This document shows positions 15,963 to 53,460 of a stretch of DNA of 64,000 nt, one piece after another. Origin of the DNA: a virus. The stretch spans positions 1-64,000 of the IMG/VR virus record IMGVR_UViG_3300048927_000157; one strand, 5' to 3'. Position numbers and translations under genes: made by a program. Positions within the stretch are counted from its first letter, which is position 1, and each line of letters starts with the position of its first letter. The notes below the pieces were generated by a model. It had not been told where the DNA came from and did no database searches. It saw only the letters and a list, made by a program, of their open reading frames with translations.

Positions 15963-17639
15963 ATGTTCGACAGCAAACAAAAAAGTTTATTTGAAGTTAC
16001 TTCAAAAAACAAACCAGCAACATCTGCATTCGTTAATGCAGCTTTAAAGAAAGGAGCAGAAACACTATCGGGTAACGGAGCCCTAAAATATTCCTCAACA
16101 GGATCAGCATTAGTTGACCAGTTCGGAGTTATGGGTAAGTTCAAAGCACCAAGATCTTTCCAGGATATCAGTAGAGATGCTGAATTACTTTGGGCAGACG
16201 ATAAGTGGGATGCAGTAGCATTCTCTGTCTTCGTGAGAATGATCTCAAGACAGACTATGTATCAGGATGGTACAATGACTTCTGTTTCACAAAAAGGAGG
16301 AGAGCTTAGACATGAAGGTATCATGAGATTCTTATGGTTACACTTCAAGGATGAGAAAACTTTCTGGACTAACGTAGGTCTAATGATCTCAGCAGGATCA
16401 TGGAAAGATATCTTCACGATGCTTTCTTATGACTTAGTACACCACGGGTGGAATGGAAGAAAGTTAAACTGGAAAAAGTTTGGAGAACTTATCCTTTCAG
16501 GATTAGAAAATTCAAACACTAGTGACTTAATTAAAAAGTATCTTCCACAGATCAAAGCTAAATCTTCTTGCAAAACTGTTGAGGCTCAGGCTGATACAAT
16601 CATTGCTAAATGGATTTGCTCATTAGTATTCGGTACAAAAGAAAATGCAGGATCTACTTACAAACAGTACAGAAAATTAAAAACTTCTGGTACTGCTCAT
16701 GAATGGCAGAAGTTAATTTCTACAAAGCAATTTGATAGAATTGATTTCAACAAAGTTCATGGTAGAGCTCTTTCTAAACTTGTACAAGGTAAGTTCTTGT
16801 TCAACCAAAAACTTTCTGACAAGTATGCAGAGTGGATCAAGGCTCCAGAAACTAAAGAAGTTAAATACACAGGTTTCGTTCACGAGTTGTTCGAAGGTCT
16901 AGGTAAGAGAGCTAGAAGAAAAGTTACTTCTCAAGAGGAAGAAACTATTAACAAGCAATTTGCTACTCTTGTTAAAAAAGGTGGAGAGACTGGTCAAACT
17001 AGTCTAATTGTAGTAAGAGATACATCAGGATCTATGAGCTCACCAGCTACTGGAACTACGATGAGCTGCTACGATATTGCTAAGGCACTTGCCCTTTACT
17101 TCTCTGAATTCTTAACAGGTAGATTTGCAGATGCATGGATCGAGTTCAACTCAGATGCTCAGATGCATACTTGGAAAGGTCAGACTCCAGTAGACAAGTG
17201 GAAAAACGATCACTCAAGTTACGTTGGTGGTACTAACTTCCAATCAGTAATTAACCTTTTCGTTAATCTGAAGCAAAAAGGAATTTCAGAAGAAGATTTC
17301 CCAACAGGAATCTTATGTATCTCTGATAGTGAATTCAACCCAACTTCGTTAGGTAAAACTAACGTTGAAACTGCAAAGGAAACTTTGAGAAGAGCTGGGT
17401 TCTCTAAAGAGTATGTGGATAACTTTGTGATTGTTCTTTGGAACCTACAGTCAGGATACTACGGTAGAGGGACTGGAGAGAAGTTTGAAACTTATGGAGA
17501 CGTTAAAAACGTATTCTATTTCAGTGGATACTCTGCTACCACTGTAGGATTCTTGACTAACACCAAGATCAAAACAGCAGAAGAATTAGTAAGAGAGGCA
17601 TTGTCTCAGGAGCTGATTCAAAGAGTAGAAGTTCTATAA
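15963..17639 (+). CDS. DUF2828-like protein: helical N-terminal domain plus C-terminal vWA/MIDAS domain (Ro60-like architecture)
   Basis: N-terminal ...LSGNGALKYSSTGSALVDQFG... (remembered DUF2828 signature). A vWA MIDAS motif VVRDTSGSMSS sits near residue 350. 558 aa. Confidence 0.7.
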   Translation: MFDSKQKSLFEVTSKNKPATSAFVNAALKKGAETLSGNGALKYSSTGSALVDQFGVMGKFKAPRSFQDISRDAELLWADDKWDAVAFSVFVRMISRQTMYQDGTMTSVSQKGGELRHEGIMRFLWLHFKDEKTFWTNVGLMISAGSWKDIFTMLSYDLVHHGWNGRKLNWKKFGELILSGLENSNTSDLIKKYLPQIKAKSSCKTVEAQADTIIAKWICSLVFGTKENAGSTYKQYRKLKTSGTAHEWQKLISTKQFDRIDFNKVHGRALSKLVQGKFLFNQKLSDKYAEWIKAPETKEVKYTGFVHELFEGLGKRARRKVTSQEEETINKQFATLVKKGGETGQTSLIVVRDTSGSMSSPATGTTMSCYDIAKALALYFSEFLTGRFADAWIEFNSDAQMHTWKGQTPVDKWKNDHSSYVGGTNFQSVINLFVNLKQKGISEEDFPTGILCISDSEFNPTSLGKTNVETAKETLRRAGFSKEYVDNFVIVLWNLQSGYYGRGTGEKFETYGDVKNVFYFSGYSATTVGFLTNTKIKTAEELVREALSQELIQRVEVL

Positions 17640-17676
17640 GGTGAAAATCCTTTAACATAAAATTAACACTGCAAAA

Positions 17677-17710
17677 TTTGCATATCTCAAAAAGATTTTG
17701 TATCTTTGCA
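17677..17710 (+). promoter_or_regulatory. phage consensus promoter driving the tRNA-like array
   Basis: TTTGCATATCTCAAAAAGATTTTGTATCTTTGCA, with upstream TTTAACATAAAATTAAC. No ORF follows for about 1.06 kb. Confidence 0.7.
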
Positions 17711-17935
17711 GTGTTATTAATGAGGTTACTATCAGCAAATACACAACAAAAACATATAATTGATTCAAAAATAAGTAACGTAGAATGCAAAAGCACAGCC
17801 ATCTCTACACTTCGAGTCCTGTATGTGAGAAGTAAAATTGTATAGGAAGGTCTTGAGATGACTTTAAAAGCAAGCAGAGGATTAAAACCCTTGGTAACCT
17901 GTCTATAAAAACTCATACAGCAACTATAAAGCAAC

Positions 17936-18032
17936 GGTATCATAAACCCCAGTCAGAGGTTCGAATCCTCTCCTCCCAACAAAGTTAAATCTTAAAAAAT
18001 ACATCGGGAGGTAGTGAAGTGGTTATCACGGG
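17936..18032 (+). ncRNA. circularly permuted tRNA gene, initiator-like tRNA-Met(CAT): 3' half, 25-nt linker, 5' half
   Basis: 17936-17979 GGT-ATCATAA-ACCCC-AGTC-AGAGG-TTCGAAT-CCTCT-CCTCCCA-A; 18005-18032 CGGGAGG-TA-GTGA-AGTGGTTA-TCAC-G-GG. Joined, they give a 72-nt cloverleaf with a C1xA72 mismatch and anticodon stem GGGGT/ACCCC. Confidence 0.65.
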
Positions 18033-18085
18033 TAAAAGCAAAAAGTGAGTTTTGATAAAGTTTCATACAGCAAACACACAGTTAA

Positions 18086-18179
18086 GCATTGAAAGCCGTT
18101 GGTCGGGGGTTCGAGTCCTTCCTCCCAAACAAAGTTAAATCTAGAAATCTTTGGGAGTAGCTCAGTTGGTAGAGCAACG
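18086..18179 (+). ncRNA. circularly permuted tRNA gene, anticodon TGA with short variable arm: 3' half, 21-nt linker, 5' half
   Basis: 18086-18129 GC-ATTGAAA-GCCGT-TGGTC-GGGGG-TTCGAGT-CCTTC-CTCCCAA-A; 18151-18179 TTGGGAG-TA-GCTC-AGTTGGTA-GAGC-A-ACG. Joined, every stem is fully paired (73 nt; G-U pairs in the T stem). Confidence 0.65.
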
Positions 18180-18497
18180 TTAAAACAAAAAATGAAACTT
18201 GAATAAGAACAGTAACAGCAAATTTTATCACAGAAACTACCATCTTAAGTTTTATGGTGTAACAGGTAGCACACTGGGAATAAGAATCCCAGAGGTTTTG
18301 GTTCGAATCCATCTTAGATAATCTGTTCTGACAAGATTGCTAACAGCAAATTAAACAAACACTTGAATTTTAATCAAACCTAGTTTAGTATGCAATCTGA
18401 AAAAATTACCTACAGCAAACTAAAACAAAATCAAAATAGGAAATTTGAAAAACAAAAGGTAATTTGATAAAGCTACACACAGCAAATAAACGTTTAT

Positions 18498-18599
18498 AAA
18501 TTTTTATTTGGATTAAAAACGATTTGGGTTCGAATCCCGAAGCCCTTGACCGAGGCACTTGGATGTGGAATATCGGTGTCAACAAGACCTGTAGCTTGT
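18498..18599 (+). ncRNA. degenerate permuted tRNA-like module (anticodon arm, T arm, closed helix, D-like hairpin)
   Basis: TTTTA-TTTGGAT-TAAAA (TGG loop), TTGGG-TTCGAAT-CCCGA, helix TTGACCGA/TCGG(TG)TCAA capped by a 19-nt loop, then CAAG-ACCTGTAG-CTTG. The geometry is imperfect. Confidence 0.3.
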
Positions 18600-18603
18600 A
18601 TTT

Positions 18604-18675
18604 GGTCCGTTCGTCTATCGGTGAGGACATTAGATTTTCGATCTAAGAAGATGGGTTCGATTCCCATACGGACTA
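18604..18675 (+). tRNA. tRNA-Glu(TTC)
   Basis: GGTCCGT/ACGGACT, TTAGA-TTTTCGA-TCTAA, ATGGG-TTCGATT-CCCAT. Confidence 0.9.
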
Positions 18676-18680
18676 CAATT

Positions 18681-18754
18681 GGTTCTTTAGCTCAACTAGG
18701 TAGAGCAGCAGTCTCTAAAACTGTGTGTTATGGGTTCGAATCCCATAAGAATCA
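18681..18754 (+). tRNA. amber suppressor tRNA, anticodon CTA
   Basis: GGTTCTT/AAGAATC, GCTC-AACTAGGTA-GAGC, GCAGT-CTCTAAA-ACTGT, GTGTT, ATGGG-TTCGAAT-CCCAT. The 7-nt loop has U33, CTA and A37. Confidence 0.85.
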
Positions 18755-18774
18755 CAACCAAAATTTTATACATT

Positions 18775-19134
18775 ATGAAAAAAGGAGACGAATTAGTAGG
18801 TTAGGTTGGAAATGAATTCCTAACTATTATTACAAGAGAAGACCTGAAACCAGGTTACAAATGTGTGCAAAGTGCACATGCATTGGCTGATTTTGCAGTC
18901 AAGTTTGAAGATGAATTTAAGCAGTGGCAGTTGGGTAGTAATTACCTGTGTTGCCTGGAAGCTTCGGAATCCAAAATTGAAAGGATACTCCACAGATTAG
19001 ATGACTTAAAAATTAAGTACCATAAATTCTTGGAACCTGATATCGGAAACCAAATGACAGCAGTAGCTGTTGAAGCAATCTCCAGAGAACAACATAAAAA
19101 ACTTTTTAAGAATTTACAACTAACATTAAATTAA
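18775..19134 (+). CDS. PTH2-like (peptidyl-tRNA hydrolase 2 family) protein with an in-frame TAG at codon 10
   Basis: ATG 18775, then MKKGDELVG-TAG(18802)-VGNEFLTIITREDLKPGYKCVQSAHA... The LTIITREDL..G.K.VQSAHA block matches the PTH2 N-terminus and lies upstream of the GTG (18865) used in the track. There is no in-frame start between 18805 and 18864. Confidence 0.5.
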
Positions 19135-19141
19135 AATTATC

Positions 19142-19417
19142 ATGAAAAAATTTGAGGCAATCAGACAAGCAATAAAAACATTATCAGAGGACCAAAAAAA
19201 ATACAAGCCTTTGAGAAAACCTTCTAACATTAAAGCAGATGACCCAGACTCTCCAGAATGGTATCAGCAAGCTGTTAGAAGTAACAAATATGAGCTAAGA
19301 CACTTATTCCAGGCTTACTCTGTACTGAAAGGAAAGCAAAGGCAGGAAACAAAAAGAAAGGAGATCTCCGAATCTTATGTAACTAAACTTGTGCAGCAGT
19401 ATGGAGACAATTTGTAA
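19142..19417 (+). CDS. hypothetical protein
   Basis: Co-directional ORF. No motif recognised. Confidence 0.55.
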   Translation: MKKFEAIRQAIKTLSEDQKKYKPLRKPSNIKADDPDSPEWYQQAVRSNKYELRHLFQAYSVLKGKQRQETKRKEISESYVTKLVQQYGDNL

Positions 19418-19649
19418 AAGTTCCAGGATAGTGTTCCACTTCAATAAGAAACACAATGAAGACAAAGATGTCCCAGCATGGGTGGTGAAGTGTAAAGGTG
19501 AGACGTACTATGTGGATCATTTAGATTCCAGGGTCGGCTTCACAACTAAGGAGACTCCAGACAACAGTCATACAAAAGGAAGTCTTCAGTTTAAAGGCTC
19601 ATTAAAAATTATTAAAGAAAACAACATGACTACTGCTCTTATTGAGTAG
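19401..19649 (+). CDS. hypothetical protein
   Basis: Track ORF 19389 trimmed to METICKSS... Ends in a tandem TAG TAG. Confidence 0.55.
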   Translation: METICKSSRIVFHFNKKHNEDKDVPAWVVKCKGETYYVDHLDSRVGFTTKETPDNSHTKGSLQFKGSLKIIKENNMTTALIE

Positions 19650-19827
19650 TAGTCTATTATAAGCAGAGTGTACCATTAGGTGTGGGTTTAGTGTGCAAGC
19701 TAAACGAAAGTTTGCTGCCGAGTAGAAAGAATTCAAAGTTACAAAGGAGTCATGACTGGAGTAATGAGAAGGGCAACTACAGAGTTTCAAACGGAAGTGG
19801 TTCGATTCCTCCTCTCTGCTCCAATAT

Positions 19828-19900
19828 TGCTACATGGAGAAATAGGTTACCTCGTCAGTCTCATAAGCTGAAGATCCAGGTTCGAGTCCTGGTGGAGCTA
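19828..19900 (+). tRNA. tRNA-Met(CAT)-like, weak acceptor stem
   Basis: TCAGT-CTCATAA-GCTGA and CCAGG-TTCGAGT-CCTGG are perfect. Acceptor TGCTACA/TGGAGCT pairs at only 5 of 7 positions. Alternative 5' strand TGCTCCA at 19817. Confidence 0.55.
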
Positions 19901-20089
19901 CTAATCCCTTGAAAGAGTTCAGCCTTTGAGTGAGGTGTGTAAGGTTAAATAACACTGGGCACGAGAGGTACTTTATGAGTTTTTGTGTTTAAAAAACTTA
20001 GGTTTGGTTGCAGTGTGCTGCCTTTCCCTTAAAAATGGAAGCAAGAAGTAAAAGAGGATATCAGCCTGATTAGCTTCACGTCCTCATTT

Positions 20090-20161
20090 CCTGATATGGT
20101 ATAGTGGCTATTACGTGACCCTCATAAAGTCAACAGCCAAGTTCGATTCTTGGTATCGGGA
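20090..20161 (+). tRNA. tRNA with CAT anticodon (elongator Met or Ile2)
   Basis: CCTGATA/TATCGGG, loop CTCATAA, CCAAG-TTCGATT-CTTGG. Confidence 0.8.
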
Positions 20162-20269
20162 CAAAAATAACTGAAGTAAAATAGAGTATCTGAGGAGTCC
20201 TTTTTAGGGGGTGTTGATACAGAGAGGGTAGCCCTGTTACAAGGGTGTAGTTTGAAAGTTATTTTATTT

Positions 20270-20342
20270 GCCCTCATAGCTCAACTGCATAGAGCAACTC
20301 CCTTCTAAGGTGTCGATACAGGTTGGAATCCTGTTGGGGGCT
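20270..20342 (+). tRNA. tRNA-Arg(TCT)
   Basis: GCCCTCA/TGGGGGC, GCTC-AACTGCATA-GAGC, loop CTTCTAA, ACAGG-TTGGAAT-CCTGT. Confidence 0.85.
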
Positions 20343-20355
20343 CAAAATTAAAATT

Positions 20356-20865
20356 ATGAATAATTGTTTGCACTGTGGTACAGAGACTACAAATCCAAAA
20401 TATTGTTGTAGGTCATGTTCTGCTAAGCATACAAATGTTAAATTTCCTAAAAAGAAATTAACTAGGACTTGTAGTAAGTGTAGCTCAGTTGTAAAATCTT
20501 ATAAACATAGTTTATGTGAATTCCATCATGAAGAATTAAAACAAACAAAGTATGAGGTTACAAAAAATTTAACTCTACAAGATTACTGGAATAAAAAATC
20601 ATTAGATGGTTTACATACTTCTTCAAAAAATGCACATATAAGACAGTTAGGTCGAACTAAATTTAAAGACCTTTTGAGAAAGCCTTGTGCTAATTGTGGG
20701 TATTCTAAACATGTGGAGTTATGTCATATTAAACCAATAAGGGATTTTAAACCAACTGATAAAGTAGACCTAGTCAATGCAAGAGATAATGTGATACAAC
20801 TTTGTCCAAACTGTCACTGGGAATTTGATAATGGATATTTAAAATTGTTAAGGCAATTATTATAA
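20356..20865 (+). CDS. HNH homing-type endonuclease
   Basis: N-terminal Cys clusters. C-terminal CANCGYSKHVELCHIKP...NVIQLCPNCHWEFDNG. Sits between two tRNA genes. The track start at 20323 is inside tRNA-Arg. Confidence 0.75.
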   Translation: MNNCLHCGTETTNPKYCCRSCSAKHTNVKFPKKKLTRTCSKCSSVVKSYKHSLCEFHHEELKQTKYEVTKNLTLQDYWNKKSLDGLHTSSKNAHIRQLGRTKFKDLLRKPCANCGYSKHVELCHIKPIRDFKPTDKVDLVNARDNVIQLCPNCHWEFDNGYLKLLRQLL

Positions 20866-20940
20866 GGCTTCTTAGCTCAGCCTGGTCAGAGCAGCTCCCT
20901 CATAAGGAGAAGGTCACAGGTTCAAATCCTGTAGGAGCCA
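20866..20940 (+). tRNA. tRNA-Met(CAT)
   Basis: GGCTTCT/AGGAGCC, GCTC-AGCCTGGTCA-GAGC, loop CTCATAA, ACAGG-TTCAAAT-CCTGT. Starts 1 nt after the HNH stop. Confidence 0.85.
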
Positions 20941-20956
20941 CATCAAAAATTTAAAA

Positions 20957-21241
20957 ATGAAACAAGAGAGATTAAATGAACTAGGATTTCATGTCCATGT
21001 GATAAAAAAAGAAACTCCTATGCTTGGAAAAGTAATATTCAGAAAAAAAGGATTTTCTCACGGGTGGGAACTTACTCTTCCTTATACAACACATCACGGA
21101 TCTTTTCTTGGGAATGACATCCAACTTACTTCCACACTATATAAAGTAACAGGAGACCAAAGAGAACTTTTAGTTCAAGTTAAAGGAGATCTTTCTGATG
21201 CAGCTATGGAAGAAATAATCACCAATGCAATAAGGGAGTAA
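20957..21241 (+). CDS. hypothetical protein
   Basis: Co-directional ORF. Confidence 0.55.
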   Translation: MKQERLNELGFHVHVIKKETPMLGKVIFRKKGFSHGWELTLPYTTHHGSFLGNDIQLTSTLYKVTGDQRELLVQVKGDLSDAAMEEIITNAIRE

Positions 21242-21714
21242 TGTACGAAGCAAGAAAATTTTCTCAGGAGAGTTACAATAAGTACAATGACTCTACAATC
21301 AATAAAGTAATCACTCACTTAGAATCATTAGGTTACAAAATAATCAGAAGAGATGAAACTTTCTCCCATGATTTAATCATTCAAAAAGCTGATGGACCAG
21401 AAGTATACGTTGAAGTAGAAGCAAGTGCTGCCTGGGAATTTACAACAAGGGACACTTACAAATATCCAAATGTTAACTTTCTTGGAAGAAAACAAAAGAT
21501 GCACATTGAACATCCCTTCATGTATATCATTGTCTGTGTAAAAACAGACTGGGCTTTAGCATGTGATTCTAATGTTATCTATAATACAGGAAGAAGAAAA
21601 GAGATTCATGTAAACTCTCAATTCAAGAAAGGCTCTGATGAAGTCTTCTATCTTCCAAAAGATAAAGTATCATTTTTCAAATTAAATCTTGATGGGTCCA
21701 AACAGACACAATAA
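21241..21714 (+). CDS. hypothetical protein (possible PD-(D/E)XK-like core)
   Basis: ...SHDLIIQKADGPEVYVEVEAS... is weakly nuclease-like. Otherwise unassigned. Confidence 0.55.
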   Translation: MYEARKFSQESYNKYNDSTINKVITHLESLGYKIIRRDETFSHDLIIQKADGPEVYVEVEASAAWEFTTRDTYKYPNVNFLGRKQKMHIEHPFMYIIVCVKTDWALACDSNVIYNTGRRKEIHVNSQFKKGSDEVFYLPKDKVSFFKLNLDGSKQTQ

Positions 21715-27769: not shown

Positions 27770-28378
27770 ATGGCAGCAAAGATCACATTTAAGCATAAGG
27801 AGTATACATTGAACAAAGTAACTAAAAACATAATGAGTGTTTTCATGTTGTGTAGTGATAAGGATAAATATGACTGGTATAAAGAAGCTCACAATTTTGC
27901 TATCTATTTAAGTCAGGCATATAATGTACAATTGTTTGTTGCATGTGGTGTAATTGCTGCCCTATCACCTGTCAAAAGATGGGACGATAATAAAAGAATT
28001 GCAGAATTGTTTATTAAATCCAGAGGCAAAGAACGTTCTCATATGAGACAATTCTGTGAAAAGGCTCAAAACATTATGGATTTGGCATTAAATGAAGAGC
28101 AGGTTTATAAAATCCTTAATGGTAGAAAAATAACTGCCTTTTGTAAGAATATATTGCACCCTAACAATGGAGAAAATATCACCATTGACAGGCATGCTTT
28201 AAGCATTGCAACGGGTATTGTTTGCACTGATGACTTTTATCAGGGTATGACAAAGATACAATACGAGTTCTTTGTATCTGCTTATCAAAAGGCAGGTGAA
28301 AAACTAAATGTAAGCCCTTTAATTGTACAGTCTGCTACATGGGTTTATTTCAGAAATAATAAAACCGATTTTAAATAG
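27770..28378 (+). CDS. hypothetical protein
   Basis: 202-aa ORF with a TAG stop. Confidence 0.6.
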   Translation: MAAKITFKHKEYTLNKVTKNIMSVFMLCSDKDKYDWYKEAHNFAIYLSQAYNVQLFVACGVIAALSPVKRWDDNKRIAELFIKSRGKERSHMRQFCEKAQNIMDLALNEEQVYKILNGRKITAFCKNILHPNNGENITIDRHALSIATGIVCTDDFYQGMTKIQYEFFVSAYQKAGEKLNVSPLIVQSATWVYFRNNKTDFK

Positions 28379-28384
28379 AATATC

Positions 28385-28558
28385 ATGGTACGGGATAACT
28401 CATATAAGATCACAGAAAAACAGTACAATTATTTATTGCCTGTGTTTGGTCTATCTGCAAAAGGAGTGACTAAATTGCACACTTCTAGAGGTCAATATTA
28501 CTTTATTGGAACCTATGAAGACTACAAAGATATGTTAAACAGATGTAAATACCTTTAA
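28385..28558 (+). CDS. hypothetical small protein
   Basis: 57-aa ORF MVRDNSYKITEKQ..., in frame with and 2 codons after the TAG at 28376. Confidence 0.4.
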   Translation: MVRDNSYKITEKQYNYLLPVFGLSAKGVTKLHTSRGQYYFIGTYEDYKDMLNRCKYL

Positions 28559-30763: not shown

Positions 30764-31657
30764 ATGAAACCAAGAGAAACAGTTTTTTTAAACAAAGAAT
30801 TCCAGAATGATAATGTCTATGGAGACGTTATTGCAGTGCCAACCTCTGATTATTTTGGAGGTATGCCAGTGGCAAAGAAAATGTCACAAACAATTATCTC
30901 GAATGGTACAGTGGTACACACAGGCTCACCGACCTACGGATTGCTACCAAATAAGGACTTTTTCGGCAGAATGGAACACGAACTCATTGAGCAGAATATA
31001 AACTACAAACAACGTTCTTTTAACCTTGAGGAAAGCCGTTTCTATGTAGACTACATTCTGGATGATGAAAGTAAGATCATCACCATCAATGGCAACACTC
31101 AGGCAGGTGTAGATGATACCATTGTACCAATGATAAGATTAACAAACTCTTATGACGGTACATTGAAGAAAGCAGGTTATCTTGGTTTTTTCAGAAAGGT
31201 TTGTCACAACGGTATGCACATGACCCACACACAGATTGAGTTCTCAATCAAAGCTACCAAAGGTAACATGCAGTCATTCGTTCCGAAGATTGATGACATT
31301 GTGAAACGTTTTCTGGATAATGAAATGTACTCAATCAAAGATAAGATTGATAAGATGAAAGTATGTTTCATTGATGAGAAAAAGATCTTTGACTGGATTA
31401 AAGATCTTAATGAGCAGGACAAAGTTTTCAGGTTTGATAAATCAGATAAGAATGATGCTCCTTCTCTGAATTCGGAACTGGTTCACGACATTGTTATTCG
31501 TGATGCTATTGCCACGGGAACCGAGCCTAATGCATGGCTTGTTTACTCTGCCTTCAATGAATTAATTCATGGTAAATTGCAGAAAAACTTCACAGATCAG
31601 AAGGCACTGGATACAAAAGTCTTCAATACTATTAATCAAATGGTGGGGGCTTTATAG
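30764..31657 (+). CDS. DUF932-like protein
   Basis: ...IVPMIRLTNSYDGTLKKAGYLGFFRKVCHNGM... matches the remembered DUF932 core (l.NShDGs...G.fR.vC.NG). Confidence 0.55.
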   Translation: MKPRETVFLNKEFQNDNVYGDVIAVPTSDYFGGMPVAKKMSQTIISNGTVVHTGSPTYGLLPNKDFFGRMEHELIEQNINYKQRSFNLEESRFYVDYILDDESKIITINGNTQAGVDDTIVPMIRLTNSYDGTLKKAGYLGFFRKVCHNGMHMTHTQIEFSIKATKGNMQSFVPKIDDIVKRFLDNEMYSIKDKIDKMKVCFIDEKKIFDWIKDLNEQDKVFRFDKSDKNDAPSLNSELVHDIVIRDAIATGTEPNAWLVYSAFNELIHGKLQKNFTDQKALDTKVFNTINQMVGAL

Positions 31658-31681
31658 CCTCTACCTTTAAAACTAAATAAA

Positions 31682-32056
31682 ATGAAAAAGTCAACATTTA
31701 TAGCAATGGTTCAGAAGGAACTGGACAATATAAAGGAAAAGGCTACACCAAAAGAATTAAAAAGACTTGTCTTCAAAGATTTTAATCCTGCAAGTGGTTT
31801 TGGTTGTGTGTATGGTTTATTAACAGGAGTGTGGCATACAAAAAGAGCTAAAGAGTTTCAAAAGAAATTCTTTCAGCATCTACATGGGTTTGGTGGTAAT
31901 TCTTTTGACTGTCATAACCTAGATAAGAAAGTAGCAGGTACTACAGGTTACACAGCCCTTGAAAAATATATTCTGATGGTGAAGCCTTCTAAGAATAGAG
32001 AGATCTTCCAATACCTAAAAGGAAAAAGAGAAACAATTGATTTAAACGTTATATAA
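31682..32056 (+). CDS. hypothetical protein, tandem paralog 1 of 3
   Basis: Shared pattern F(I/V)..VQKEL..IK..ATP.EL..L......C(V/I)YG(L/Q)(L/M)TG...RA..F......(Y/F)TALEK(Y/F)...........YLKGK.ETI.L. Confidence 0.65.
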   Translation: MKKSTFIAMVQKELDNIKEKATPKELKRLVFKDFNPASGFGCVYGLLTGVWHTKRAKEFQKKFFQHLHGFGGNSFDCHNLDKKVAGTTGYTALEKYILMVKPSKNREIFQYLKGKRETIDLNVI

Positions 32057-32449: not shown

Positions 32450-32815
32450 ATGGAAAGAACAGAATTTGTACAACAGGTAATTGCAGAAGTTGAAAATCTC
32501 AAACTAAATGCAACAGAAGTGGAGAAGGCAAAGCTAGATAGATCTAGTTTAAGACATTATACAGCAGGAGGCTGTATCTATGGTCAATTAACAGGTGCTT
32601 CATTTAGTGAGAGAGCTCACGAATTAAGCCCAAAAATTTATGAGAATGCAACTGGGAAAATGAAATTATTTGATACTCAATATGAGGACTTAGATTTCAG
32701 TAAAGGTGTATGGTTCACAGCCTTAGAGAAATACCTGTATATCATCACACAGGAAGAGAGAATTCACATACTGGATTACATCAAAGGAGATACTGAAACC
32801 TTAAATATCAAATAG
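32450..32815 (+). CDS. hypothetical protein, tandem paralog 3 of 3
   Basis: Same family, more divergent. TAG stop. Confidence 0.65.
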   Translation: MERTEFVQQVIAEVENLKLNATEVEKAKLDRSSLRHYTAGGCIYGQLTGASFSERAHELSPKIYENATGKMKLFDTQYEDLDFSKGVWFTALEKYLYIITQEERIHILDYIKGDTETLNIK

Positions 32816-39916: not shown

Positions 39917-40460
39917 GACTGGTAATGTTTATGGTAAACTAACAGTAGTATCAAGAGCTGACAATGACAAAAATGGATTTGGAAAATGGATATGTAAATG
40001 TGATTGTGGAAATAAGTCTATAGTAGCAGGGATTAATCTGAGAAAAGAAAAAGGAACAAGGTCTTGTGGGTGCTTAAAAAATGAAATAATGTTTACTAAA
40101 AGGAGTGGGAATGCAGTTTTTGGAATCATCCTAAGAAACATTAAAAGTGATTGTAAAAAGAGAAATCTACCTTTTAACATAACCTTAGAGGATGTAAAAG
40201 AGATTACTGTTCAACCTTGTAGTTATTGTAAGAGAGAACCTTATGAATTAAAATGTAGGTATCAAAGACCAGATTCCACTGTAGAGAATGACTGTTTACT
40301 TTTGAATGGTATAGATAGAATCATACCATCAAAAGGTTATACTAAAGGAAATATTACTCCCTGTTGTAAGTACTGTAACAGAGCTAAAAGTGATTTGACT
40401 TTAGATGAATTTAAAAATTTAATCAAATTAATTTATAAAAACTATATTAATGAGACTTAG
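39891..40460 (+). CDS. HNH-type homing endonuclease-like protein
   Basis: CKCDCGN...CGC Cys cluster. C-terminal NGIDRIIPSKGYTKGNITPCCKYCNRAKSD. Confidence 0.6.
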   Translation: MKQRKLIDETGNVYGKLTVVSRADNDKNGFGKWICKCDCGNKSIVAGINLRKEKGTRSCGCLKNEIMFTKRSGNAVFGIILRNIKSDCKKRNLPFNITLEDVKEITVQPCSYCKREPYELKCRYQRPDSTVENDCLLLNGIDRIIPSKGYTKGNITPCCKYCNRAKSDLTLDEFKNLIKLIYKNYINET

Positions 40461-41736
40461 TGTTAGTGAAGATTCACTTAATTACCCTTGTTCAGTTGTA
40501 ACAATTGGACAAGTTTTCGATATAAAAAATGCCGATAACATCAAAAGAGTAGTTCTGTATGGAAACAACGTAATTGTCTCTAAAGACGTTAAACAGGGAG
40601 ACACAATGCTTTACTTTGTAGCAGGTACACAATTGTCAGAGGATCTTTGCTTCAATAACAACCTTTATGATGAGGTCCAGCTTAACAAAGATGTGACAGA
40701 TAAGAAAGGTTACATTTCTGCCAAAAGAAGACTTGTAAAAACTCTTAAACTAAAAGAAACTCTTTCTGATGGAATGTTACTTCCTATTGAAGCTCTAAAC
40801 TACTTAGAGGAGGGTAAACTTGATGCTAAAGGATTCTTGAAAATTGGGGATACATTCACTCACATTGGAGACACTATGATTTGTCAGAAATATGTTCCAC
40901 CAGTTAAGCAATCTGGACTACCAAAAGGTGAGAAGCAGCCTAAAGAAAATAGATTGAAAGATCTACTATTGGATAATCAATTCAGATTCCACTCAGACAC
41001 AGCTCATTTTGCCAGAAATCTGGATAAGTTTGGAGCAGGAACTCAAATTGTTGTGACTAGGAAGTATCATGGGTCTTCATTGATCCTAAGTCATGTGTTA
41101 GTGAAGAAAGAGCTTAACTGGTTTGAGAAATTGATTGACAAGTATATTACTCCACTTCCTAAAACTCAATGGGGGTACATTCACTCATCTGGTAAACCTA
41201 AATCAAGACTGCCTAAAGGGGTGGAAGCTGAGCAGGTTGGATGGACTTCTCACACTCCTAGTTTCTACTCTGCCAATATTTGGAAGAGAGCAATGGAAAT
41301 GCATAAACACAACCTTGAGAAAGGAATCACTATTTATGGTGAAATTGTGGGTCAGGGAGTTCAGGGTGAGGGTTTCACTTATGGTTTCGAGTATGAGATC
41401 TTTGTGTATAGAATCACTTATACCAACCCAGATGGACAGGTTTACGAGTTCTCATGGGAGGCAGTGAAGAGGTACTGTGATAAGTATGGAATCAAGTATG
41501 TTGAAGAGTACTTCTCAGGTAAAGTACATGAAATAGTAGGAAAACAAGGAACTACAGAAGATCTGTTGGAGAGATTAAAGGATGCTTATCTTGATAAATC
41601 CTACCCAGACTGTAAGGTTGATGAGGGAATCTGTATCAGAGTAGCTGAGACGGATGAGATCTTCAAACTAAAATCTCCTAAGTTTATTGATGGGGAATCT
41701 AAGGAATTAGAGCAAGGAATCTCCGATGGAGAATAA
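40450..41736 (+). CDS. RNA ligase (Rnl-family nucleotidyltransferase)
   Basis: Motif I TRKYHGSS (K-x-H-G, as in Rnl2 KIHGTN), motif IV-like DEGICIRV, motif V FKLKSPKF. Confidence 0.7.
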   Translation: MRLSVSEDSLNYPCSVVTIGQVFDIKNADNIKRVVLYGNNVIVSKDVKQGDTMLYFVAGTQLSEDLCFNNNLYDEVQLNKDVTDKKGYISAKRRLVKTLKLKETLSDGMLLPIEALNYLEEGKLDAKGFLKIGDTFTHIGDTMICQKYVPPVKQSGLPKGEKQPKENRLKDLLLDNQFRFHSDTAHFARNLDKFGAGTQIVVTRKYHGSSLILSHVLVKKELNWFEKLIDKYITPLPKTQWGYIHSSGKPKSRLPKGVEAEQVGWTSHTPSFYSANIWKRAMEMHKHNLEKGITIYGEIVGQGVQGEGFTYGFEYEIFVYRITYTNPDGQVYEFSWEAVKRYCDKYGIKYVEEYFSGKVHEIVGKQGTTEDLLERLKDAYLDKSYPDCKVDEGICIRVAETDEIFKLKSPKFIDGESKELEQGISDGE

Positions 41737-42750: not shown

Positions 42751-43545
42751 ATGAAAAACATATTCAAACTCCTTTTAGGATTAACACTATTTATTAGCAC
42801 AGTATCGTGCAGACAGAACAGACAGCCGTATCATGAGGTGGTTTACAATGCTCAGGGAGAGCAAATGGTTAAAGTCCAGGACTATGACCAGAATGGTAAT
42901 CTGATCGAGTATTACATTGCTTATGCAATGTTCAACCAATTGTATAACAATGGTGGCTACAGATCGGTGAATCATTACTATTATGACAACAGACCTGCTT
43001 TTGATAGAAGCTATGTAAATTATGACAGAGCCTATCAATATGATACTAATCCAAGGCAGACATACCAAGATCAGAATGTAGCTGTTACTGAGCCTCAGAA
43101 ACCAGCTTACAGACCATCTTCACCGAAAACCTCGAATGTAACATATACTGATAGTAAACCAACGAAAGTAACTTACAGACCAAGTAGTCCTACAACTTCA
43201 AGTTATACAACTACAAAACCTGTGACTTATAGACCTTCGTCTCCAACTACTACATCAAGTTATAGACCGAGCAGCCCGTCATCAACAACTTCTTCTTACA
43301 GGTCTTCTTCACCGAGTTCCAGTTACAAGAGCAGCTCTTCATACAGTAGTTCATCATACAGAAGTAGCTCACCAAGTTCTTCAAGTTCAAGTAGCTATAG
43401 AAGTAGTTCACCTTCTTCTTATTCATCTTCATCATCTTCTTCGTATAGGAGTTCTTCACCAAGTTCTTACTCTTCATCAAGTAGTTCTTACAGAAGTTCG
43501 TCTCCAAGCTCTAGTTCAAGCTACAGCTCATCTTCAAGAAGATAA
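42751..43545 (+). CDS. lipoprotein with a long Ser/Pro/Tyr/Arg tandem-repeat tail
   Basis: Lipobox MKNIFKLLLGLTLFISTVSC. C-terminal half consists of YRPSSP / YRSSSPSS(S)n repeats. Confidence 0.7.
   Translation: MKNIFKLLLGLTLFISTVSCRQNRQPYHEVVYNAQGEQMVKVQDYDQNGNLIEYYIAYAMFNQLYNNGGYRSVNHYYYDNRPAFDRSYVNYDRAYQYDTNPRQTYQDQNVAVTEPQKPAYRPSSPKTSNVTYTDSKPTKVTYRPSSPTTSSYTTTKPVTYRPSSPTTTSSYRPSSPSSTTSSYRSSSPSSSYKSSSSYSSSSYRSSSPSSSSSSSYRSSSPSSYSSSSSSSYRSSSPSSYSSSSSSYRSSSPSSSSSYSSSSRR
43108..43545 (+). repeat. coding low-complexity tandem repeats (YR[PS]SSP-Sn)
   Basis: At least 10 iterations of TAYAGR-(C/A)CN-AGY-TCN-CCN followed by Ser codons. Confidence 0.8.
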
Positions 43546-43555
43546 TTATATGGAT

Positions 43556-43641
43556 CAGTGTATAACTCAATGGTAGAGTCTTGCTGGGATGAGTAGAAAT
43601 ACTCGGAGTGAGGTTAGGGGGTTCGATTCCCCCTTACACTA
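43556..43641 (+). ncRNA. tRNA-like gene whose anticodon loop is replaced by a GAAA-capped extension
   Basis: Acceptor (C)AGTGTA/TACACT(A), D arm ACTC-AATGGTA-GAGT, T arm GGGGG-TTCGATT-CCCCC, stem TTGCT/AGTGA enclosing GGGAT-[GAGTA-GAAA-TACTC]-GG. No 7-nt anticodon loop. Confidence 0.4.
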
Positions 43642-43654
43642 CAAATTTTAGAGT

Positions 43655-43861
43655 ATGATTATAAAAATAACTAATTGTACAACAACTACAGGTGGTGGTA
43701 AAGGTACACCACTTAGATGGAGACAAAATCAGAATGTCACTATTGTAATTTCTGATAATAGTGATCCTTATAAATGGGCTAAACCTAACAGAATGTTTAT
43801 TATTCGAGGTAGACCATATTATACCACAAAAGAGTCAAAAAGTATTATAATAAAAAATTAA
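43655..43861 (+). CDS. hypothetical protein
   Basis: Co-directional ORF. Confidence 0.5.
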   Translation: MIIKITNCTTTTGGGKGTPLRWRQNQNVTIVISDNSDPYKWAKPNRMFIIRGRPYYTTKESKSIIIKN

Positions 43862-49292: not shown

Positions 49293-49782
49293 CACAACAG
49301 ATTTCTTATGTCCTACTTACACAAAGGACTTCACAGTAATTAGAACTGAAATTGGAGATTCCTTGTTAAAAAGTTTAATTAGGCAACATGATGTCATCAT
49401 AATGATGGGTCACGGGGATACCAGAGGACTATATGGATTTGATAGACACATTGTAGATGCTTCCTTTGTTGATGAGTTAAGAAAGAAGATCTGTATTTGT
49501 ATCTGGTGCTATGCTGCTGACTTTGTTGAACATTATGATCTTAAATCTCCATTTTCAACTGGAATGTTTATTTCAGAATCAGAAGAAGCCGATGCTTTAG
49601 GAGAAGAGTATGATGAGGGAGACATAGAAGAGTCAAACTTTTGGTTTACAGAAGCTTTGAAAGGTTTTTTCTCAGACTTAGAAAAATACGATTACAAGAA
49701 ACTAAACCGATGCTACAACGTAGGATTAAACAGTATCACAGAATATAACAGAAAACAATTTATACAAACATGGCACACTTAA
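49261..49782 (+). CDS. hypothetical protein with His-Gly ... Cys pattern
   Basis: VIIMMGHGDTRGLY ... ICICIWCYAADF. Very tentatively caspase-fold-like. Confidence 0.55.
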   Translation: MKVLVIHPQDSTTDFLCPTYTKDFTVIRTEIGDSLLKSLIRQHDVIIMMGHGDTRGLYGFDRHIVDASFVDELRKKICICIWCYAADFVEHYDLKSPFSTGMFISESEEADALGEEYDEGDIEESNFWFTEALKGFFSDLEKYDYKKLNRCYNVGLNSITEYNRKQFIQTWHT

Positions 49783-50912
49783 AAGCACAGGATTTCGAGA
49801 CAGAGAAGGAAAACTTCAGAAAGATGATTCCTTGGATTGAAGAGTCAAGAAACGTTAAAATCCTTCTGGCATTCGTAAGAGGAAGCCATATGTATGGAAC
49901 CAACACGGAGCAGTCAGATGTAGACATTACTTTTGTTTATCAGCAGCCAACCAATGAGATCCTGAAAAACAATTACAAGAAAGATATGAGTATTGGGGGA
50001 GATGATGTAGTTGGGTTTGAGATCCAGAATTTCATGGAACTTCTGGTTAAGAACAACCCAAACATGATTGAGGCTCTTGATATTCCAGATGAGTGTATAA
50101 TCTACAAAAACCCAGTAATGCATGTATTTGATGATTCCAAGCCTTGGATCACAACACTTACTGAAAAAACCATTTTGGGTTATGCAGACTCTCAGATCAA
50201 GAAAGCAACAGGACTTAATAAGAAGATGAATAATCCTCAGCCAAAAGAGAGAAAATCAATTTTGGATTTCTGTTATGTTATCTCAGGTCATAATTCAATT
50301 CCACTCCTAAGATGGGCAGACCAGTTGAATATCAATTTGGATACTTGTGGATTAGTGGATCTTCCAGTAGGAAAAGGACTTCATGGTCTTTATGTAGACA
50401 ATGAAAATAAGTATCAGCTTAGAGGTCTGATTAAAGATGAGGATTCAGTTAACCTGAGACTTTCTTCTATCCCTAAAGAGCTGGCAACAAATTTTGAAGC
50501 TGTCACCATGTATTACAACTTAGATGGTTTCCAAGTTCATTGTAAGGATCATAAAGAGTACTGGGAATGGGAAGCTAAAAGAAATGAAGAAAGATTCAAT
50601 GCTAACCAAAAGGCAGGGCAAGGAGTTGATCTTAAAAATATGTCTCACCTATTCAGACTTCTTGATATGGCTGATAACATTTCCACAGGAAAAGGTCTTA
50701 AAGTGAAATCAGATAACGTGGAGTTCTTGAGAGCTATTAGAGCAGGAGAGTACAACTATGAAGATCTGATGAAACAGGCTGAGGAAAGGTTTCATACCAT
50801 CAAAGGAAATTACATCACAGTTGATCTTCCAGAAGAAGTGGATATCAGCAGGATGAAAGATCTTCTATTACAGTTTAGATTAAATACAGTAAACAGTGGA
50901 ACAAAGTTTTAA
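49770..50912 (+). CDS. RlaP-like nucleotidyltransferase (Pol-beta superfamily, RNA-repair associated)
   Basis: LLAFVRGSHMYGTNTEQSDVDITFVY fits the GS..YG......SD.D motif of the ligase-associated nucleotidyltransferase family. Confidence 0.6.
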   Translation: MAHLKAQDFETEKENFRKMIPWIEESRNVKILLAFVRGSHMYGTNTEQSDVDITFVYQQPTNEILKNNYKKDMSIGGDDVVGFEIQNFMELLVKNNPNMIEALDIPDECIIYKNPVMHVFDDSKPWITTLTEKTILGYADSQIKKATGLNKKMNNPQPKERKSILDFCYVISGHNSIPLLRWADQLNINLDTCGLVDLPVGKGLHGLYVDNENKYQLRGLIKDEDSVNLRLSSIPKELATNFEAVTMYYNLDGFQVHCKDHKEYWEWEAKRNEERFNANQKAGQGVDLKNMSHLFRLLDMADNISTGKGLKVKSDNVEFLRAIRAGEYNYEDLMKQAEERFHTIKGNYITVDLPEEVDISRMKDLLLQFRLNTVNSGTKF

Positions 50913-52533: not shown

Positions 52534-53460
52534 ATGAGTTTAATCACCGTTTTAATCGGTATATCTGGAGCAGGAAAAACAACATTTTCAACTCCTTTAC
52601 TAAAAGATAAAAATACTATCAGAGTAAACAGGGATGATGCCAGAACCATGTTATTTGGAGTAAGTCAATCAGATCAGACTTATTACAACAGAAAAGACAT
52701 TAGAGCATGTGAGGATCTGGTTTCAGAAACCATTGAAGACACAGTTTATAATGCCTTGAATAAAGGAAAAAACATTGTTTTCGATAACACTCATCTTCAA
52801 AAGAAGTATATTGATGAGATTTTATTCAAGTATAATCACTTGGCTGACATTGAGTTAGTATTTTGTGATGTTCCTTTGAAGGAAGCTCAAGATAGAGTTG
52901 TTAAAAGAAACTCATTGGCTTCAGTCCCTGTATACATTGAGAAACACTACAATGACTACATCAAGCTTAAAAAAGCAATGCATGGTCAGCAGTTATTCTA
53001 CCCTCAAACAGCTCCCCAAGTTAAATTCAATTCTTCTCTTCCAGACACTTACATAGTGGATATTGATGGAACGGTTGCTTTGAAAGGAGATAGAGATATC
53101 TTTGATGACTCTAAGCTTCACTTGGATACTGAAATTAAAGAGGTTGGGCACATTATTAGAGCACTCCATAAAGATGGTTTCAAGATAGTGTTTGTATCGG
53201 GAAGACAAGATTCCTGCAAAGATACTACCACTCAATGGTTAAAGGATAAAAACCTCTGGATGACAGATTCTGAAATCTTCATGAGGAAAGCCAAAGACCA
53301 AAGAAATGACAGTATTGTCAAAGAAGAAATAGTATTAAGAGACTTGCTACCAAGATTCAACGTTGTTGGAGTATTGGATGACAGAATAGGGGTGACTAGA
53401 AACTTCCACAAGTTGGGAATGTTCGTCCTGAATGTAAATCAAGGTTTCGTAAAATTTTAA
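52534..53460 (+). CDS. polynucleotide 5'-kinase / 3'-phosphatase (Pnkp, T4 Pnk-like)
   Basis: N-terminal P-loop LIGISGAGKTTF. C-terminal HAD phosphatase motifs IVDIDGTVA, VSGR and LDDR. Confidence 0.85.
   Translation: MSLITVLIGISGAGKTTFSTPLLKDKNTIRVNRDDARTMLFGVSQSDQTYYNRKDIRACEDLVSETIEDTVYNALNKGKNIVFDNTHLQKKYIDEILFKYNHLADIELVFCDVPLKEAQDRVVKRNSLASVPVYIEKHYNDYIKLKKAMHGQQLFYPQTAPQVKFNSSLPDTYIVDIDGTVALKGDRDIFDDSKLHLDTEIKEVGHIIRALHKDGFKIVFVSGRQDSCKDTTTQWLKDKNLWMTDSEIFMRKAKDQRNDSIVKEEIVLRDLLPRFNVVGVLDDRIGVTRNFHKLGMFVLNVNQGFVKF

Follow-up and report, generated by a model that had tools for sequence, protein, structure and literature searches.

A conserved amber codon near the start of a phage PTH2-like hydrolase gene beside an amber suppressor tRNA gene, and its possible role as a translational gate

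We report that a 64,000-nucleotide stretch of viral DNA (IMG/VR record IMGVR_UViG_3300048927_000157, positions 1 to 64,000; the whole stretch is referred to as the window) carries a gene for a protein resembling peptidyl-tRNA hydrolase 2 (PTH2) whose reading frame is interrupted at codon 10 by an amber (TAG) codon, and that the gene for an amber suppressor tRNA, tRNA(CUA), is located directly upstream. Judging from comparison with homologues, the two genes appear to form a conserved module in large phages that otherwise use TAG as a stop codon. Our data make it likely that the PTH2-like hydrolase is translated through the amber codon in a suppressor-dependent manner; readthrough of the TAG itself we infer from the sequences. 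Specifically, translation would start at ATG 18775 and the complete fold would depend on decoding of the codon-10 UAG by the phage's own elongator tRNA(CUA): without an active suppressor tRNA the ribosome would release a peptide of nine residues, with it the full-length hydrolase would be made, and hydrolase synthesis would be linked to how suppressor tRNA and release factor 1 (RF1) are balanced. That the gate is regulatory, coupling the supply of enzyme to suppressor activity, has in our view slightly more in its favour than against it. An earlier note on this DNA had pointed out the amber codon; its observation is confirmed and its interpretation supported by the present analysis, and the wide conservation of the module had been missed there.

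Structure of the locus and of the encoded protein

The features of the locus are as follows.

18604-18676 (+): tRNA-Glu(UUC) gene, directly 5' of the tRNA(CUA) gene (ARAGORN; Rfam 58.7 bits)
18681-18755 (+): amber suppressor tRNA gene, anticodon CUA (CTA) (ARAGORN; Rfam tRNA model, 67.2 bits)
18775-18801 (+): nine-codon leader MKKGDELVG, beginning with ATG 18775
18802-18804 (+): in-frame TAG, codon 10, next base G (TAG-G); proposed translational gate for tRNA(CUA)
18805-19134 (+): PTH2-like domain, 109 amino acids, with TAA stop at 19132-19134 (PF01981, phrog_1866, AlphaFold, Foldseek)
18817-18837 (+): codons of beta strand 1, FLTIITR (AlphaFold secondary structure, E5-11; aligned to strand 1 of PTH2 structures)
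18865-18867 (+): GTG, the start forced on a standard-code open reading frame (ORF) finder (ORF scan of the window)

The gene start reads ATG AAA AAA GGA GAC GAA TTA GTA GGT TAG GTT GGA AAT GAA TTC CTA ACT ATT ATT ACA AGA, and conceptual translation from ATG 18775 gives MKKGDELVG-TAG-VGNEFLTIITREDLKPGYKCVQSAHA..., ending at the TAA, in agreement with the earlier note as regards the ATG, the TAG and the leader. The suppressor tRNA gene that had been placed upstream is found there by both ARAGORN and Rfam, and its Rfam score is the highest of any tRNA within 17000-21500. The two genes are adjacent as described, the distance between the tRNA end and the ATG being 19 nt (18756-18774) and not the 21 nt first given; the TAG begins 47 nt past the tRNA end. 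No terminator-like or promoter-like site was found between tRNA(CUA) and ATG 18775, and the proposal that they belong to one transcription unit is consistent with this. The tRNA-Glu(UUC)/tRNA(CUA) pair is syntenic in close relatives, and a megablast search of the region against GenBank phages gave no match.

The tRNA(CUA) is of the elongator type, with G1-C72, a canonical CUCUAAA anticodon loop, a 5-nt variable loop and A73. An initiator-type tRNA(CUA) that starts translation at the UAG was considered and rejected because of G1-C72 and the absence of three G-C pairs in the anticodon stem, and because an in-frame ATG also precedes every TAG. In a similarity comparison, the best matches of tRNA(CUA) among other tRNAs were scattered over Ile, Met, Leu, Arg and others, and the discriminator base was mostly A.

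The context upstream of ATG 18775 is A-rich and has no Shine-Dalgarno motif, as is usual for the genes of the window; since the motif is present in only 5 of 55 window genes, Shine-Dalgarno support for this ATG was not applicable as a test. The AAAGGAG inside the window leader is missing from relatives. Downstream of the TAG, the first in-frame ATG, GTG or TTG is GTG 18865, 20 codons on, which bears out the statement that no such start lies in between. This GTG corresponds to residue 21 of the post-TAG product, and a standard ORF finder returns an 89-amino-acid protein that begins there.

In the alignment with Pfam PF01981 (PTH2), the readthrough product is covered from residue 17 to 116 and the profile, which has 115 positions, from 4 to 114; the score is 21.5 bits, compared to 16.1 bits for the GTG-start product, so the homology begins before 18865; neither score reaches the gathering cut-off of 23. 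Many close homologues have a precomputed PF01981 match, and by sequence the protein would be a borderline, divergent member of this family. PHROG 1866 (phrog_1866, unknown function) matches residues 15-116 at 1e-10. A family profile built from ten members and searched against solved structures matched PTH2 chains with E-values from 3e-9 to 6e-2 (24bt 3e-9, 2zv3 1e-8, then 1rzw, 1q7s/Bit1, 1wn2, 1rlk and 1xty), and these alignments start at strand 1 on the side of the family and within residues 2-7 on the side of the solved structures. AlphaFold, run on the post-TAG product with an alignment of 43 sequences, gave a predicted local distance difference test score (pLDDT) of 94.6 and a predicted template modelling score (pTM) of 0.88, with strand 1 predicted at residues 5-11, in the central sheet, as in the PTH2 alpha/beta fold. 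In a Foldseek search against the PDB the best 13 matches were all PTH2 (3erj, 1q7s, 1wn2, 1rlk, 1xty, 2zv3, 1rzw; template modelling scores 0.63-0.82). The segment LTIITREDL, which the earlier note had assigned to PTH2 beta strand 1, is placed there both by the profile alignment to solved chains and by the AlphaFold strand. In the model, the product from GTG 18865 would be without strand 1, which belongs to the core, and without the first turn of helix 1. Because strand 1 is encoded upstream of the only canonical start, the complete fold would need translation through the TAG, as had been suggested.

The locus could in principle represent a pseudogene, a sequencing error, or a gene of which only the truncated product from GTG 18865 is made. 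The standard ORF finder does yield only the 89-amino-acid GTG product, and in the annotation of several GenBank records the homologue is missing or truncated at the N-terminus. We nevertheless consider this very improbable: the TAG recurs in dozens of independent assemblies and in genomes of cultured phages, the gene body is under purifying selection, with 794 clusters (50% identity) matching the family profile at E<=1e-10, and the fold is predicted with high confidence, from which the GTG product would lack a core strand.

Like PTH2, the phage proteins have the RxDL and Q..HA motifs, and they agree with it in fold and in the presence of an acidic residue within the strand-4 loop. Q32, H35, R21 and D23 are invariant, and the acidic E87/D89 aligns near the catalytic Asp. 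The phage subfamily differs in having a 2-residue deletion at the GK loop and EPD(I/L)GNQ (EPDIGNQ in the window) instead of the DAG.T loop, with a 4-residue deletion. The predicted enzyme probably acts on peptidyl- or N-acyl-aminoacyl-tRNA. A DNA pattern coding for EPDIGNQMTA had 0 matches in 185,579 species genomes, and no cellular homologues were recovered with a single protein query or a single degenerate DNA pattern; by these sequence searches the subfamily appears to be phage-only.

Conservation of the amber codon and its linkage to tRNA(CUA)

A tblastn search of GenBank phages first identified homologues in the huge uncultured phages LR756500, LR756501 and LR745206, all of which read ATG, 1-3 codons, TAG, strand 1. 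Two IMG/VR scans added 82 loci (related loci are given below by L numbers), and the sequences were walked upstream in frame from strand 1. The pattern of ATG, 0-8 codons, TAG, 1-10 codons and strand 1 was found in 83 of 86 loci, corresponding to 61 of 64 distinct genes in a sample that is biased toward the gated clade. Neither the remaining two frames nor a version with TAA or TGA in place of TAG gave the pattern in any gene (0 of 64 each); once the relatives are counted it is far beyond chance. The commonest gated N-terminus is MK-TAG-I, and 37 of the 61 open with ATG-NNN-TAG. The relatives thus do not use an ATG start in the region corresponding to 18805-18865, which would have spoken against the earlier interpretation, and in 50 of the 61 gated homologues no ATG, GTG or TTG occurs from the TAG up to the third strand-1 residue.

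The gated gene is also present in cultured phages, listed here with gene start, position of tRNA(CUA) and database annotation.

Acinetobacter ME3 (NC_041884): ATG ACT TAG ATT; tRNA(CUA) 420 nt upstream; GenBank start is a GTG inside strand 1
Ralstonia RsoM2USA (MG752970), 68877-69194: AAAGGAG, 7 nt, ATG TTG TAG ATT; one tRNA(CUA) in the genome; gene unannotated
Serratia BF (NC_041917), 286107-286406: GAGGA, 7 nt, ATG ACG CAC TAG; tRNA(CUA) not seen within 3 kb; gene unannotated
Tenacibaculum pT24 (LC168164): MK-TAG, PTH2-HD fusion; tRNA(CUA) 2.6 kb upstream; start truncated
Xanthomonas XacN1: MK-TAG, HD-PTH2 fusion; two tRNA(CUA), in the terminal repeats; GenBank start is an ATG four codons past the TAG
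Stenotrophomonas RAS14 (OP752703): MK-TAG, HD-PTH2 fusion; no tRNA(CUA) within 2.5 kb; start truncated

In phages of hosts that use Shine-Dalgarno sites (RsoM2USA, Serratia BF), such a site precedes the upstream ATG. Because of the N-terminal TAG, the ME3, pT24 and RAS14 genes have been given starts inside the fold and the RsoM2USA and Serratia BF genes have been omitted; the N-terminal TAG is a source of systematic annotation error. The RaK2 homologue has no gate.

With respect to linkage, tRNA(CUA) was present in 46 of 63 distinct related loci, the next commonest anticodon (Met-CAT) being found in 20; where a locus has tRNA genes at all (52 loci), tRNA(CUA) is in 43 cases the one closest to the gene. 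Both genes invariably share a strand, with tRNA(CUA) upstream or downstream at a median distance of 696 nt, and the canonical CUCUAAA loop was present in 40 of 47 scored tRNA(CUA). In a divergent clade with the motif EPDLDN, the gated members L107, L113 and L104 have tRNA(CUA) 9-44 nt downstream. A covariation rule (no TAG, no tRNA(CUA)), which held in 3 of 3 cases in a first sample, failed in this clade and was dropped. As a separate observation, the high-GC locus L105 (IMGVR_UViG_3300027985_000843) has a PTH2-like gene with an ochre suppressor tRNA(UUA) gene approximately 900 nt downstream; no gate is visible there, but the N-terminal flank is cut by the locus end.

Several findings weigh against suppressor-dependent translation, and some of them would suit another explanation, in which the leader is a short upstream ORF that ends at the TAG and the hydrolase is translated from a non-canonical codon just past it, either through reinitiation or independently (in the window, the GTT after the TAG, ATT 18826/18829 or CTG 18844). 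The codon after the TAG is AUH or GUH (Ile/Val) in 48 of 61 gated homologues, with ATT in 31 of 61, which fits near-cognate reinitiation; AUU and GUN can act as weak starts in bacteria, and infC uses AUU. A canonical start follows the TAG in 11 of the 61, and in L091 and L093 an ATG comes directly after it. In the mycobacteriophages Bxz1 and ScoobyDoobyDoo the sequence is ATG/GTG TAG GTG at the annotated GTG start, with tRNA(CUA) 180-300 nt downstream, and the Shine-Dalgarno spacing fits the GTG after the TAG, such that the gate is ambiguous in these phages. In favour of suppression, the 61 gated homologues have A (47), G (13) or C (1) and never T directly after the TAG, i.e. a purine in 60 of 61, and a 3' purine reportedly favours amber suppression in E. 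coli (Bossi 1983; Miller and Albertini 1983); the AUH/GUH preference is not explained by a purine at +4 alone.

However, any stop codon would serve to end an upstream ORF, and these AT-rich phages prefer TAA, yet TAG is used in 61 of 61. Moreover, the codon after the TAG cannot initiate in 13 of 61 genes (AAC, AAT, AAA, AGC, GAA, CTT, ACN), and the strong linkage to tRNA(CUA) would be left unexplained. Finally, the leader of the relative L090 reads ATG AAA AAA GGT AGT GAC GAG TTA ATC GGT TAG, and comparison with the window shows, to either side of the TAG, synonymous differences and an in-frame indel of 3 nt; by this measure the leader appears to be coding, with a peptide conserved across the TAG in the clade of the window. 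Taken with these points, initiation downstream of the TAG seems to us improbable, and suppressor-dependent translation is preferred.

The remaining findings on the negative side concern the generality of the gate and the chemistry of the enzyme. No tRNA(CUA) was found within 6 kb in 17 of 64 loci, and the TAG-less homologues L109, L110, L111, L117 and L118 sit 8-700 nt from a tRNA(CUA). The linkage of tRNA and hydrolase hence does not depend on the gate, which points to a functional partnership of enzyme and tRNA to which the gate is an added layer. The gate is not universal: among 40 family representatives roughly 60% have M-x-Q-(I/V) N-termini, in which the Q probably is a code-15 (TAG = Gln) rendering of the TAG, and roughly 40% have plain starts; of the latter, two were examined and both translate under the standard code. 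In addition, the Lys of the canonical GK..AQ..HA motif aligns to Tyr or Gln in the phage family (Y28 in the window, which has K29 beside it). According to mutagenesis of S. solfataricus Pth2, this Lys and the Asp (and Thr) of DAG.T are reportedly active-site residues. Because of the replaced Lys, the substrate may differ from classical peptidyl-tRNA.

A side observation concerns duplicated gene starts. Three ORFs (L016 3033-4040, L037 2098-3120 and L080 5246-5992) share the beginning of a PTH2-like gene, with leader, TAG and strand 1 (M(S/T)-TAG-IYKLTTVTRRDLTPGY), then become homing-endonuclease-like (HNH in L080), and in each case a complete PTH2-like gene follows shortly downstream. This resembles the outcome of a homing-endonuclease insertion in which the 5' end of the gene was duplicated.

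Genetic code of the window and other amber-bearing genes

If the genome as a whole used code 15, the TAG would be an ordinary sense codon and the proximity of tRNA(CUA) incidental to the tRNA array. The Borges et al. preprint and Peters et al. (PMC9523058) document TAG-recoded phages with tRNA(CUA) well. Among the relatives studied here, L003, L012, L018, L106 and L108 have extra internal TAGs, and one TAG-less homologue has CAG at the site; the window is also only part of a larger genome, with the late genes lying outside. In the 64 kb of genome covered, however, the fraction of the window covered by ORFs was 0.767 with the standard code, 0.805 with TAG as sense and 0.834 with TGA as sense (control), so the gain from TAG does not exceed that of the control stop. 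The means over 53 loci (the window and 52 relatives) were 0.73, 0.79 and 0.79, respectively. Several well-defined window genes end with TAG, including 30764-31657 and 27770-28378. A phage tRNA(CUA) is present, as in code-15 phages, whereas TAG remains in use as a stop and the PTH2-like gene is the only convincing gene with an N-terminal or in-frame TAG in the window. The amber gate is likewise the sole such TAG in 50 kb of LR756500 and in 50 kb of pT24.

Codon usage within the family gives the same picture. In the leaders, 61 of 509 codons (one in eight) are TAG; in the gene bodies there are 3 TAG versus 388 CAA/CAG among 6396 codons, an approximately 250-fold enrichment in the leader, and the true stops of these 64 genes are TAA in 50, TGA in 14 and TAG in 0 cases. 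Family-wide, the other leader residues are poorly conserved and yet the TAG is kept. Since TAG is confined to the leader and conserved Gln in the body is coded by CAA/CAG, selection appears to act on the TAG codon and not on a Gln residue. Genome-wide recoding is therefore in our opinion unlikely to account for the amber codon, if somewhat less so than downstream initiation. Public protein sets already hold these proteins with Q at the TAG site as a result of code-15 gene calling; one of them, P0001, cannot be obtained by standard-code translation, and TAG is present in its DNA. By analogy with code 15, and from the one CAG homologue, Gln is tentatively suggested as the amino acid inserted at the TAG.

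Other readthrough candidates in the window were rejected: in 27770-28558 and 30764-32056 the downstream parts have their own ATG, and 43226-43861 looks non-coding. In the 30764-32056 stretch, a 297-amino-acid gene ends with TAG at 31655-31657, in frame with the next ATG (31682) 8 codons later, and the gene at ATG 31682 is a paralogue of 32450-32815, which ends in TAG too. An active amber suppressor would fuse the 30764-31657 product with its downstream neighbour.

ORFs other than the hydrolase gene that have an N-terminal TAG are approximately four-fold enriched across the related loci (22 of 200, compared to 17 of 603 for TAA and 5 of 204 for TGA), and many of them fall into a few recurring families. 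One is an HD-like domain protein (weak Pfam HD match), for which 7 of 7 distinct stand-alone copies begin M-x(1-7)-TAG-I; such copies were noted in L002, L009, L058, L063, L064, L072 and L074. Fusions of the HD-like and PTH2-like domains, in one or the other order, occur in XacN1, RAS14 and pT24 (L086-L088), L029 and L041, and no copy of the HD-like protein was found in the window. To judge from these sequences, the HD-like family would be a second amber-gated family with a functional tie to the PTH2-like protein. An 81-amino-acid protein family that follows the hydrolase gene is gated (MK-TAG-I or MM-TAG-I) in 6 of 15 distinct copies; the window copy, which has no TAG, is the following.

19401-19649 (+): ORF of 82 amino acids, unknown function (METICKSSRIVFHFNKKH...), of the family following the PTH2-like gene in many relatives

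These three proteins, i.e. the PTH2-like hydrolase, its often-fused HD-domain partner and the 81-amino-acid protein, are the proposed members of a small amber-gated tRNA-maintenance regulon. It is a tentative and rather doubtful idea that orphan amber suppressor tRNAs mainly operate this regulon, with the enzyme acting on the acylated or peptidyl form of the suppressor tRNA and so closing a feedback loop on UAG readthrough, and that the module is an evolutionary seed of full TAG recoding.

Relation to known systems and wider context of the window

For code-15 phages, Borges et al. (2021 preprint; 2022) have already proposed gating of expression by suppressor availability, and in Borges et al. 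and Peters et al. 2022 (PMC9523058) the proposed "code change module" consists of a suppressor tRNA together with an aminoacyl-tRNA synthetase and release factor. The phages have in common with the present case that a phage amber suppressor tRNA is needed for phage genes with in-frame TAG. They differ in that dozens of late, structural and lysis genes are recoded and reading them with the standard code makes the coding density collapse; in the present case the surroundings use the standard code, TAG still ends genes, and there is one conserved N-terminal amber codon in a gene of tRNA metabolism. The Borges et al. preprint makes no mention of the hydrolase or of an N-terminal bias.

Papers on XacN1, RsoM2USA and the Zeta crAss-like phages describe suppressor tRNAs that are without identifiable target or apparently non-functional, and in the RsoM2USA paper the target is only a guess. 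The phages are of the same kind as those considered here, XacN1 and RsoM2USA themselves carrying the gated gene; the papers looked for C-terminal extensions, whereas the target proposed here is N-terminal. It was overlooked because the stop codon is N-terminal and gene callers truncate or omit the gene. Iyer et al. 2021 noted PTH2, the peptidyl-tRNA hydrolase of archaea and eukaryotes, in jumbo phages and proposed peptidyl-tRNA recycling in ribosome rescue, with no link to amber codons or suppressor tRNA. We found no description of an amber-gated tRNA(CUA)/PTH2-like module in the full texts searched, which is not proof of novelty. The finding supplies a conserved target for orphan phage suppressor tRNAs that is directly testable, and carriers have culturable hosts (Acinetobacter, Ralstonia, Serratia, Xanthomonas, Stenotrophomonas, Tenacibaculum and possibly Mycobacterium). 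By tying a suppressor tRNA to a tRNA-ester hydrolase, the module suggests a circuit for the control of readthrough and a possible intermediate toward stop-codon reassignment.

Two further systems offer comparisons. The prfB gene (release factor 2, RF2) is reportedly autoregulated via an early in-frame UGA (Craigen and Caskey 1986); it too is a translation-factor gene in which an early in-frame stop and the choice between termination and recoding set the output. It differs in that prfB uses a +1 frameshift that senses RF2, whereas tRNA readthrough here would sense suppressor against RF1. Lambda bar minigenes (ATG-NNN-stop, of two or three codons) cause peptidyl-tRNA drop-off that is cleared only by peptidyl-tRNA hydrolase. 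The ATG-NNN-TAG openings of gated homologues are a resemblance only, and the window leader has 9 codons.

The window has a GC content of 35%, 23 tRNA genes on the + strand (ARAGORN) and A-rich gene starts without Shine-Dalgarno motifs, which suggest a Bacteroidota host. Its closest relatives are IMG/VR contigs of 157-180 kb, and it represents an early or replication region, using the standard code, of a large phage. Three genes belong to a tRNA-repair toolkit.

40450-41736: RNA ligase
49770-50912: nucleotidyltransferase (CCA-adding type)
52534-53460: polynucleotide kinase

Beside the tRNA array, a 558-amino-acid ORF (15963-17639), also counted with this toolkit, contains a vWA/MIDAS-like DTSGS motif and is matched by PHROG 850 ('RNA-binding protein', 1e-38) as well as by Pfam DUF7788, and 18097-18180 gives a sub-threshold Rfam match to YrlA (Y RNA-like; 36 bits, E 2e-5, gathering score 69); together they may represent a Ro60/Rsr-like protein with a Y-RNA partner. 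Within the array, an HNH endonuclease gene (20350-20865; Pfam HNH_2, 1e-8) lies between tRNA-Arg and tRNA-Met, and relatives likewise have HNH genes among their tRNAs. Finally, tRNA-Leu(AAG) at 18248-18321 may be degenerate, because it scores only 32.8 bits with Rfam, compared to 48-67 for its neighbours, and a terminator-like hairpin is predicted inside it.

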